Shown here in pieces: positions 47,241-48,632 of a DNA stretch of 61,011 nt. Made by a program: the position numbers and the translations under genes. Source of the stretch: an uncultured Lachnospiraceae bacterium. Its GTDB lineage: Bacteria; Bacillota; Clostridia; Lachnospirales; Lachnospiraceae. Position 1 is the first letter of the stretch. Each line of letters opens with the position of its first letter. The stretch covers positions 1-61,011 of the forward strand of contig CADARM010000003.1 in assembly GCA_902790275.1 (NCBI GenBank), in the 5' to 3' direction. The notes beneath the pieces were generated by a model that saw nothing but the letters and a program-made list of their open reading frames with translations, was not told where the DNA came from and made no database searches.

Positions 47241-47269
47241 TTGCAATAAAATGGGGGTGTTGGTATATT
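47241..47269 (+). promoter_or_regulatory. sigma-A promoter of the candidate sRNA
   Basis: TTGCAA-17 nt-TATATT with TGn extended -10. Confidence 0.6.
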
Positions 47270-47276
47270 ATTACTT

Positions 47277-47368
47277 GTAACCCCCCAATACATTATAGTT
47301 TTTTGCTATACCCCATAAGAAGAAATACCTTCTCTAAAAAGGACAGATCAGTAATGACTGTCTTTTTT
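47277..47368 (+). ncRNA. Candidate ~90-nt small RNA with three C-rich single-stranded motifs
   Basis: Own promoter; AACCCCCCAA, TACCCCAT, TACCTTCTCT motifs; small TATAG/CTATA hairpin; terminator GGACAG(A)TCA-gtaa-TGACTGTC-T6 (47336-47368); no RBS-led ORF. Confidence 0.55.
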
Positions 47369-47421
47369 ACGTTTATGGGCCTTTTTTTATTTTTCAGACG
47401 TTATTTCAAACATTGTCAATG

Positions 47422-47450
47422 TCGACAAAAATCCCTTTTACAGATATAAT
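47422..47450 (+). promoter_or_regulatory. sigma-A promoter of the ribozyme-nagB transcript
   Basis: TCGACA-17 nt-TATAAT; predicted start near 47457. Confidence 0.7.
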
Positions 47451-47493
47451 GGAAAAGTAAAACTACGCTTCTTGGGAGGAAAGAAGCGTTTTT

Positions 47494-47626
47494 AGCGCCG
47501 GGCCCGTAAAGGGTGACGAGGCTGGCAGTTATCGAAAGATTCGGCGGGTGCTGTCACGGCTGAAATGTCGTAAGAGAGAAAGTAAAAAGCAGAATCAAAA
47601 CTGTAACAGAGGTTCTCTCAAATTTA
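47494..47626 (+). ncRNA. glmS ribozyme (GlcN6P-activated self-cleaving riboswitch)
   Basis: Cleavage motif A/GCGCC (47494-47499); P1 GCCC/GGGT; GACGAGG; P2 TGGCAG/CTGTCA; TTATCGAA...TCGGCGG core; P3 CGGC/GTCG; P4 GAGAGAA/TTCTCTC with A-rich internal loop; P4.1 GCAG/CTGT. Confidence 0.93.
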
Positions 47627-47667
47627 AGGAAGAAAAATTAAGGAAGATTTTTAAGGAGAATTAAATA

Positions 47668-48459
47668 ATGAGAGTAGTAATTCAGGATAATTACGAAAAG
47701 ATGTGTAAATGGGCAGCAAATTACATTGCAGCCAAGATCAACGCACACAAGGAAGCAAGACCCTTTGTACTGGGACTCCCCACAGGTTCATCACCTATCG
47801 GGGTTTATAAGGAGCTTGTCAGAATGAACAAGGCGGGAGAAGTATCTTTCGCAAACGTTGTAACTTTCAATATGGATGAGTATTTAGGACTTCCCAGAGA
47901 GCATGACCAGAGCTACTGGTACTTCATGCACGACAATCTTTTCAACCATCTTGTTGATATGAAGCCCGAAAACATCAATATCTTAAACGGTATGACAGAC
48001 AATCCCGAAGAGGAATGCGCCAATTATGAAAAGAAGATCGCATCATATGGCGGAATCGACCTTTTCATGGGCGGTATCGGTGTTGACGGCCATCTTGCAT
48101 TCAACGAACCTTACACATCACTCGCATCACGTACGGGTGTCAGAGATCTTACAACAGACACACGTATCGTAAACTCCAGATTCTTCGGAAACGATCCCGA
48201 GAAAGTTCCCGCACAGGCACTTTCCGTAGGTATCGGAACCGTAACGGATTCAAAGGAAGTTCTGGTACTTATTTCCGGTCACAACAAAGCAAGGGCACTT
48301 GCTGCCACAGTTGAAGGCGGAGTAAGCCAGAAGTGGACCTGTTCTGCACTTCAGCTTCACAATGCGGCTATCATTGCCTGCGACGAAGAAGCTTGCGGCG
48401 AGATCACGGTCGACACATACAAGTATTTCCTCGATATCGAAAAGAAGGAAAGACTTTAA
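47668..48459 (+). CDS. nagB: Glucosamine-6-phosphate deaminase
   Basis: VLGLPTGSSP, TFNMDEY, GGIGVDGHLAFNEP, NSRFF, ALSVGIGT, SALQLH; AAGGAG RBS. Confidence 0.97.
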   Translation: MRVVIQDNYEKMCKWAANYIAAKINAHKEARPFVLGLPTGSSPIGVYKELVRMNKAGEVSFANVVTFNMDEYLGLPREHDQSYWYFMHDNLFNHLVDMKPENINILNGMTDNPEEECANYEKKIASYGGIDLFMGGIGVDGHLAFNEPYTSLASRTGVRDLTTDTRIVNSRFFGNDPEKVPAQALSVGIGTVTDSKEVLVLISGHNKARALAATVEGGVSQKWTCSALQLHNAAIIACDEEACGEITVDTYKYFLDIEKKERL

Positions 48460-48480
48460 TTTTATAAGAAAAAAGATCAA

Positions 48481-48518
48481 GATCGGCGGAGGATCGCGTA
48501 TCCTTCGCCGGTTTTTTT
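48481..48518 (+). terminator. Intrinsic terminator after nagB
   Basis: ATCGGCGGAGGAT-cgcgt-ATCCTTCGCCGGT plus T run. Confidence 0.85.
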
Positions 48519-48632
48519 AATTTGTTTTAATAAAATTCACAATTTTAGTCAAAAAAGTTAAAAAATACTTAATTTTTGACGGATATTATGGGGTTGAAAG
48601 AGGGAAACATGTATTGAAGAGAGGGCGATAAT

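Follow-up and report, generated by a model that had tools for sequence, protein, structure and literature searches.

A glmS ribozyme subclass upstream of nagB in an uncultured Lachnospiraceae bacterium and its possible role in ammonium-dependent synthesis of glucosamine-6-phosphate

The ribozyme-nagB unit

The window, i.e. the whole analysed stretch of 61,011 nucleotides from an uncultured Lachnospiraceae bacterium, contains a nagB gene (47668-48459, +) that is flanked by ftsH and a plsY-like gene. It encodes a glucosamine-6-phosphate (GlcN6P) deaminase of 263 aa, which matches TIGR00502 and is of the long, E. coli/Borrelia-like type, and it is preceded by the ribosome binding site (RBS) AAGGAG (47653-47658, +), 9 nt 5′ of the start codon. 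Further upstream lies the sigma-70-type promoter-like site TCGACA-17-TATAAT (47422-47450, +) with 11 of 12 consensus matches; promoter-like sites number at chance level in the region, so that it is treated as a consensus match only. Transcription is predicted to start near 47456-47457. A scan of the sequence revealed an intrinsic terminator-like hairpin with a T run (48479-48520, +; stem 48479-48515), which ends the one-gene unit. An earlier note on this DNA had described a promoter, an RBS, a monocistronic nagB, and a terminator, and had stated that neither nagA nor a sugar transporter is adjacent. All of these elements were seen again, the promoter and the terminator as promoter-like and terminator-like sequences, and no nagA or transporter gene was found next to nagB in the window.

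A covariance-model search identified a glmS ribozyme, i.e. a match to RF00234, at 47483-47629 (+) with 64.6 bits (E 1.3e-12). The gathering score is 37 bits, so that the complete ribozyme with its core motifs, which the earlier note had recognised and had proposed to check with the Rfam model, is borne out. In the whole genome, which is 87% complete, this match is the sole copy detected, and it sits 5′ of nagB, whereas ribozymes of this family are usually found in a glmS 5′-UTR. Based on the sequence and the Rfam alignment, self-cleavage is predicted between A-1 and G1 (A47494/G47495, +), and the motifs GACGAGG, TTATCGAA and TCGGCGG can all be read in the sequence. RF00234 and pair counts place the core at 47494-47619 (+), with a short P1, P2/P2.1/P2.2, P3, and P4, the composition of the nagB-type subclass described below.

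The relatives are represented by a clade of NagBs with at least 89% identity, which comprises the best 80 of 571 matches. The sequence GCGCC starts at +1 in every ribozyme of the clade that was compared (65 of 65). For 24 clade ribozyme sequences, which are kin and not independent, 98.4% of the cells pair, compared to 30-45% in slid controls. All seven pairs of the P2.1/P2.2 double pseudoknot are invariant across these 24 sequences, both sides have changed in 14 of 31 pairs, and the scaffold helices P1-P4 pair at 94-100% and contain compensatory changes, indicating at the sequence level that the structure of the clade ribozyme is under selection. Contigs from rumen RNA runs of relatives span the ribozyme and nagB; such contigs show no ends, strand, or level.

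Separately, a C-rich small-RNA candidate was observed at 47276-47375 (+), with a promoter-like site at 47241-47269 and a terminator-like hairpin of its own. It has no Rfam match near threshold. Matches are present in 24 of 24 genus genomes, the order has weaker ones in a small number of further families, and the candidate occurs also in genomes that lack the ribozyme-nagB unit.

A 5′ hairpin and the nagB-type RNA subclass

A 5′ hairpin, P0 (47460-47493, +; core stem 47465-47473 with 47481-47489), is predicted with −11.9 kcal/mol and a z value of −2.9. It lies directly 5′ of the cleavage site and is not covered by the structured region of the Rfam model, and the hairpin (47465-47489) was absent from the description of the leader in the earlier note. 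Its loop, GGGAGGA (47474-47480), is Shine-Dalgarno (SD)-like and has no start codon. Cleavage at A47494/G47495 is predicted to remove P0.

For comparison between leaders, a P0-type stem was defined as a predicted stem that closes at most 6 nt from the cut and encloses an SD-like sequence. Such a stem is predicted in 58 of 64 nagB-operon leaders versus 5 of 88 glmS leaders, and in 69 of 74 leaders of the RNA-pattern metagenome sample. The pair types vary along the P0 stem; each leader was folded alone, and the variation is therefore no formal covariation test. P1 is shorter in the nagB-type ribozymes, i.e. the median distance from G1 to GACGAG is 21 nt versus 29 nt in the glmS-linked ribozymes. 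The L4 motif CAGAA..ACTGTAACA, which was derived from the nagB-type set, occurs in 64 of 65 nagB-type and in 0 of 90 glmS-type ribozymes. As judged from these sequence features, i.e. P0, the short P1, and an L4 of their own, the nagB-linked ribozymes form a distinct subclass.

An upstream SD-like stretch is enriched in both types of leaders. Strong anti-SD pairing 5′ of the cut is found in 58 of 64 nagB-operon leaders (20 expected) and in 52 of 88 canonical glmS leaders (19 expected). In B. subtilis, mRNA is stabilised by a 5′ hairpin or a ribosome binding site, and the cleaved glmS mRNA is degraded by RNase J1 (available portion of PMC3997798). An RNase J gene is present in this genome. For these reasons, P0 is most simply read as a stabiliser that would be taken off by cleavage. 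Within the literature searched, a cleavage that removes a 5′ stabiliser of glmS mRNA was not found described.

In the canonical glmS leaders (L197-L296), the enriched SD-like sequence is situated 5′ of the cleavage site at a distance of about 28-40 nt, where it is possibly a general stabiliser that is lost by cleavage. P0 and this stretch together suggest that cleavage also strips a stabiliser from the mRNA.

Two other roles of the leader were considered and rejected. One was sequestration of the RBS by the 5′ leader, with ON or OFF output; no conserved pairing between the P0 loop and the downstream leader was found (mean z −0.3; 5 of 64 leaders below −2), and access to the RBS is predicted to be unchanged by cleavage (mean unpaired 0.51 vs. 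0.53, n = 55), with a change of >0.2 in 1 of 55 leaders. A conserved upstream ORF that uses the SD-like sequence of P0 was dismissed after 64 leaders had been read by eye, because the start codon is inconsistent.

Gene neighbourhoods, retained glmS, and the NagB enzyme

Records of the clade (best 80 of 571) are titled Lachnospiraceae, Oscillospiraceae, Anaerovoracaceae, Eubacterium, and Erysipelotrichaceae, and those of the close relatives rumen Lachnospiraceae. The families are mixed on the NagB tree, a quick tree with many inner forks open, which suggests horizontal spread of the cassette. Among the best 80 of 571, a ribozyme pattern heads the nagB-containing unit at 58 of 80 loci, and the first gene is nagB at 39, an acetyltransferase gene at 18, and glmM at one of these; 22 loci have no ribozyme pattern, including four with <700 nt of upstream sequence. 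Within 3 kb of the clade nagB, again for the best 80 of 571, glmM is present at 53 of 80 loci, a GlmU-C-like acetyltransferase gene at 48, glmS at seven, YvcK/GlmR at five, and a nagA-like gene at none. The acetyltransferase is a stand-alone protein that resembles GlmU models in their C-terminal half, with scores below the cut-off. Operons that join nagB to glmM, the acetyltransferase gene, glmR, and in some cases glmS also occur where a ribozyme is absent. The genes on the 5′ side vary, yet the link between ribozyme and operon is fixed.

RF00234 ribozymes were found in 15 of 43 genomes of the genus, and 15 of 15 are located directly before a long-type nagB. The NagB lineage of this window comprises 20 rows of the quick tree (support 96). 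In this lineage, glmM and the acetyltransferase gene are mostly not beside the ribozyme-nagB unit, and in this genome glmM, the acetyltransferase gene, and glmR are spread over contigs C16, C9, and C69. The ribozyme stays on nagB without these neighbours, indicating that nagB itself is a target. Outside the genus, 50 genomes were tested, drawn from the genomes of the 80 clade loci (best 80 of 571). The ribozyme is present in 43 of them with 44 hits, of which 42 head a nagB unit, one heads acetyltransferase-glmM, one lies at a contig end, and none heads glmS. The operon is split in one genome, G095 (L448 and L173), in which one ribozyme precedes nagB and a second ribozyme precedes acetyltransferase-glmM. 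A search of metagenomes with the RNA pattern yielded 85 loci, and 77 were kept after removal of one without the 5′ core and seven duplicates. The first gene is nagB at 58 of the 77 loci, the acetyltransferase gene at 13, glmM at three, and glmS at none; three loci are too short.

The values for other ribozyme-bearing genomes are very different. In an even draw across the class, glmS is downstream in 59 of 60 genomes and nagB in none, and in a draw across the phylum, glmS is downstream in 38 of 39 fetched loci (38 of the 98 positive genomes were sampled). Viral contigs gave four RNA-pattern matches, three upstream of glmS and none upstream of nagB. The ribozyme-nagB arrangement is thus rare outside the clade. 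The survey of downstream genes that the earlier note had suggested gave nagB, the acetyltransferase gene, or glmM behind the nagB-type subclass, and glmS in 59 of 60 genomes of the class draw. One case among the 399 genomes searched stands apart. In G549:C5 (L321/L334), glmM is followed by a ribozyme of the canonical type (120 bits), a short-type nagB, a terminator-like hairpin (by eye), and glmS. This NagB belongs to another, unrelated clade, and apparently represents an independent capture of the ribozyme; nagA was not found in this genome, which is 100% complete.

The displacement of GlmS by NagB, which the earlier note had proposed together with a genome search for glmS, is contradicted by the results. 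An intact glmS of 608 aa (801 bits, no stops) is encoded on contig C15, where it starts 27 nt after the preceding gene and has no ribozyme. Among the 15 ribozyme-bearing genus members, glmS is over the cut-off in 12 and broken at contig ends in two, so that it is retained in 14 of 15; the single negative member is 84% complete. In the non-genus clade genomes, glmS was found in 46 of 50, and the glmS-negative relatives are known from drafts, the completeness of which is partial or not stated. As glmS is kept, no auxotrophy argument stands. The glmS cluster on C15 (G000:C15:4500-23500, L012) includes gdhA, an Amt-PII fusion gene, and asnB, and presumably also glnN, purA, guaA, pyrG, and purF; in addition to asnB, the genome encodes asnA. 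In half of the fetched glmS regions (10 of 20), at least one member of the nitrogen cluster is found no more than about 4.5 kb from glmS.

At three of the 20 fetched glmS loci, glmS is the last gene of a ribozyme-led operon. At L347, the only one of the three that was read, glmM and glmS are separated by a terminator-like hairpin with a T run (seen by eye; the terminator scan did not list it), and operon-end glmS was therefore dropped as support for control by the ribozyme. Separately, an ORF at L013 5599-6768 (G000:C94) ends at a contig end in a C-terminal piece of GlmS, possibly by misassembly; its start we take to be chorismate mutase/prephenate dehydratase-like.

Genes for the supply of amino sugars were searched in this genome, which is 87% complete, so that missing genes are not proven absent. 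Neither nagA over the cut-off nor a mannose-family PTS was found, and the sole EIIC detected is of the fructose type. The fraction of relatives with nagA is 2 of 14 for the ribozyme-bearing genus members and 26 of 64 for the clade genomes tested (not found in 38). A second NagB-like match is present in just 7 of 50 non-genus clade genomes; where nagA is present, the clade NagB may therefore be the only deaminase for GlcNAc use. For the short-type nagB, nagA lies within 1.5 kb in 6 of 16 class-draw loci and is adjacent in 0 of 13 genus cases. Long-type and short-type nagB occur together in 0 of 43 genus genomes. A full bifunctional GlmU over the cut-off was not found in this genome (87% complete), and the stand-alone C-terminal-GlmU-like acetyltransferase (G000:C9:5786-6457) leaves the uridyltransferase step unaccounted for; a search for UDPGP-family uridyltransferases gave no match, and the controls likewise had none.

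The nagB product has a score of 376 bits on TIGR00502 (cut-off 237) and matches the E. coli (1cd5), Borrelia (3hn6), and Vibrio (5hj5) enzymes over the full length (E 6.6e-93 to 3.4e-98). The equivalents of D72, D141, H143, E148, R172, F174, K208, Y121, and Y254 are retained in 80 of 80 clade NagBs (best 80 of 571), and the catalytic residues are thus common to the clade and E. coli NagB. The position of E. coli K250 reads D. The activator site for GlcNAc6P consists of Y121, D141, E148, S151, R158, K160, and Y254 (residues including S151, R158, and K160 are listed in the available portion of PMC4281351), and three of the seven are altered, i.e. S151T, R158G, and K160R, in 80 of 80 (best 80 of 571). 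The same changes are present in a sister clade of 10 NagBs, which have no ribozyme, glmM, or acetyltransferase gene within 1.5 kb. Loss of the activator site was therefore rejected as a mark of the ribozyme link, which the changes predate.

The equilibrium value of E. coli NagB is 220 mM, and a Haldane calculation with the kinetics of the Giardia enzyme puts it roughly at 45 mM. With 1 mM Fru6P and 10 mM NH4+ as assumed concentrations, the equilibrium ceiling is roughly estimated at 0.05-0.2 mM GlcN6P, which is close to the half-saturation of the B. subtilis ribozyme (0.2 mM GlcN6P). Rumen ammonium is 5-20 mM. On this calculation, amination by NagB would be feasible solely with downstream pull. 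Bacterial NagB is regarded as degradative under physiological conditions (available portion of PMC4281351).

A possible role of NagB beside GlmS

Starting from the observed anatomy, conservation, gene neighbourhoods, and kept glmS, we think it probable that GlcN6P-triggered cleavage is an OFF switch on nagB and that NagB, alongside GlmS, synthesises GlcN6P from ammonium. As long as GlcN6P is low, the 5′ end of the uncut mRNA would be protected by the P0 hairpin with its SD-like loop, and NagB would be made. At rumen ammonium, the enzyme would run in the aminating direction (Fru6P + NH4+ to GlcN6P), pulled by GlmM and the acetyltransferase, and would save the ATP that glutamine costs. Rising GlcN6P would induce cleavage, leading to the loss of P0 and to a 5′-OH end that is open to RNase J. 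Low ammonium would be covered by the glutamine-dependent GlmS, the gene of which is clustered with genes for glutamine, ammonium transport, and amidotransferases, so that the division between GlmS and NagB would parallel GS/GOGAT versus GDH and AsnB versus AsnA. NagB is reversible and may thus also degrade GlcN6P in relatives with nagA. Biosynthesis by a reverse NagB had been put forward in the earlier note; the gene context of the relatives and the lack of a detected amino-sugar supply speak for it, while the retention of GlmS removes its role as a replacement. The wider claim that NagB is the main route of cell-wall nitrogen via ammonium in many rumen Clostridia, with GlmS as a low-ammonium reserve, we regard as evenly balanced.

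Several observations count against ammonium-dependent synthesis under an OFF switch. GlmM and the acetyltransferase, which consume GlcN6P, share the switch, in G095 even without nagB; that these enzymes should be shut off by what they consume is a poor match to an OFF switch. In addition, the equilibrium favours deamination, and 26 of 64 clade genomes have nagA. If cleavage turned genes ON, it would induce the removal of GlcN6P, with NagB deaminating and with GlmM and the acetyltransferase leading to the wall; glmS would have shed the ribozyme, and the subclass-specific P0 would be an inhibitory or destabilising leader that is removed by cleavage, so that this extra 5′ domain would invert the output. 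Every gene behind the subclass would then be a GlcN6P consumer, provided that NagB is catabolic, glmS is never behind it (0 of 77 metagenome loci and 0 of 44 hits in 50 genomes), the second ribozyme of G095 heads acetyltransferase-glmM alone, and P0, the short P1, and the L4 motif separate the subclass from the glmS-linked ribozymes. However, the P0 loop has no conserved pairing with the leader and the predicted RBS access is unchanged, RNase J is present and 5′ hairpins or ribosome binding sites stabilise mRNA in B. subtilis (available portion of PMC3997798), and a canonical-type ribozyme precedes nagB in G549. Furthermore, neither amino-sugar uptake nor nagA was detected here, so that an induced deaminase would only run a futile cycle with GlmS. 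We therefore view an ON switch, and likewise an inhibitory P0, as unlikely. The ON alternative of the earlier note thus found no structural support, and retains in its favour that glmM and the acetyltransferase gene also lie behind the ribozyme.

An OFF switch could also act on an ordinary deaminase or near-equilibrium buffer, sparing salvaged GlcN6P for the wall, with negligible synthesis from ammonium. The standard catalytic residues of NagB, the equilibrium on the side of deamination, and the occurrence of nagA in 26 of 64 genomes of the clade, most of which lack a second NagB match, are compatible with this, but repression of a degrading enzyme by its own substrate is positive feedback, nagA is adjacent at 0 of 80 loci (best 80 of 571) and escaped detection in 38 of 64 genomes, and nagB operons that have no ribozyme still carry glmM, the acetyltransferase gene, glmR, and in some cases glmS; such a deaminase or buffer appears quite improbable. 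That the ribozyme is a passenger or relic of a rearrangement without any regulation of nagB would agree with the 22 of 80 loci (best 80 of 571) that lack the pattern, four of which have <700 nt upstream. It is very unlikely in view of the invariant core with compensatory changes, the subclass-specific structure, and the link to the operon that stays fixed while upstream neighbours vary. Least credible of all is the full displacement of GlmS by NagB, the strong form of the earlier proposal; one of the 15 genus members with a ribozyme (84% complete) and four of the 50 other genomes gave no glmS match, but these are drafts, and the gene is intact here (801 bits, no stops) and in most relatives.

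Ammonium-dependent synthesis beside GlmS, the reading that we favour, can be compared with known systems. Canonical RF00234 ribozymes (B. subtilis cdaA-cdaR-glmM-ribozyme-glmS) have the same cleavage-site sequence, double-pseudoknot core, and P3/P4 scaffold, and their hosts have RNase J in common with this host. The canonical ribozyme heads glmS, whereas the nagB-type heads nagB, the acetyltransferase gene, or glmM and differs by P0, which closes at −2, the shorter P1, and the distinct L4. In B. subtilis, glmM is upstream of the ribozyme, while in the operon form with nagB it is downstream. In contrast to the E. coli-type catabolic NagB, the clade NagB is not clustered with nagA and is ribozyme-led, and the activator residues S151, R158, and K160 of the E. 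coli enzyme (1cd5) read T, G, and R. Pairs of ammonia- and glutamine-dependent enzymes are known, i.e. AsnA/AsnB and GDH versus GS-GOGAT, and this genome has asnA, asnB, gdhA, and the Amt-PII gene; in the literature searched, a bacterial NagB/GlmS pair of this kind was not found described. The anabolic deaminases of Giardia and Entamoeba, which do not respond to GlcNAc6P, produce GlcN6P from Fru6P and ammonium, the direction proposed here; the Giardia enzyme has a KM for NH4Cl of about 19-23 mM and is not activated by GlcNAc6P (available portion of PMC4281351). These organisms have no GlcN6P synthase and induce the gene in encystment, while here GlmS is kept, control would be exerted by RNA, and amination is a proposal. 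Giardia retains the counterpart of Arg158, in contrast to this NagB clade.

To our knowledge, the glmS ribozyme has been described as a one-target riboswitch. The literature search, which had the McCown 2011 survey, its 2012 chapter, and the supplements outside its coverage, found no glmS ribozyme before nagB, and the term 'nagB' is absent from the main text of PMC3766115 in its available portion. The RNA belongs to a known class, and its target and its 5′ domain are new. Regulation of nagB by the ribozyme would be new with either sign, and in the case of an ON switch it would be a natural self-cleaving riboswitch that activates. A horizontally shared NagB cassette under the ribozyme predicts a glutamine-independent entry of ammonia into the peptidoglycan of rumen bacteria and, if true, would bear on the flow of rumen ammonia into microbial biomass and on a bypass of GlmS.

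Several other ribozyme loci have unusual arrangements. At L127, L128, L132, and L133, glmS is directly 5′ of a ribozyme that heads acetyltransferase-nagB-glmM, i.e. the canonical order is reversed. Paired close ribozyme matches precede glmS at L216 (G252:C85) and L286 (G247:C13). At L266 (G141:C14:16295-16450, −), a ribozyme of 88 bits follows glmM, and no glmS is present in the next 2.2 kb. At L320/L337 (G539:C8), a clade nagB is cut short by a transposase-like gene and has a ribozyme-like pattern below the Rfam threshold upstream. In G317, a second RF00234 copy (G317:C18:13214-13360, −; L291/L338; 83 bits) is located directly 5′ of a gene for a type I glutamine synthetase (TIGR00653, 478 bits), which takes the place of glmS.
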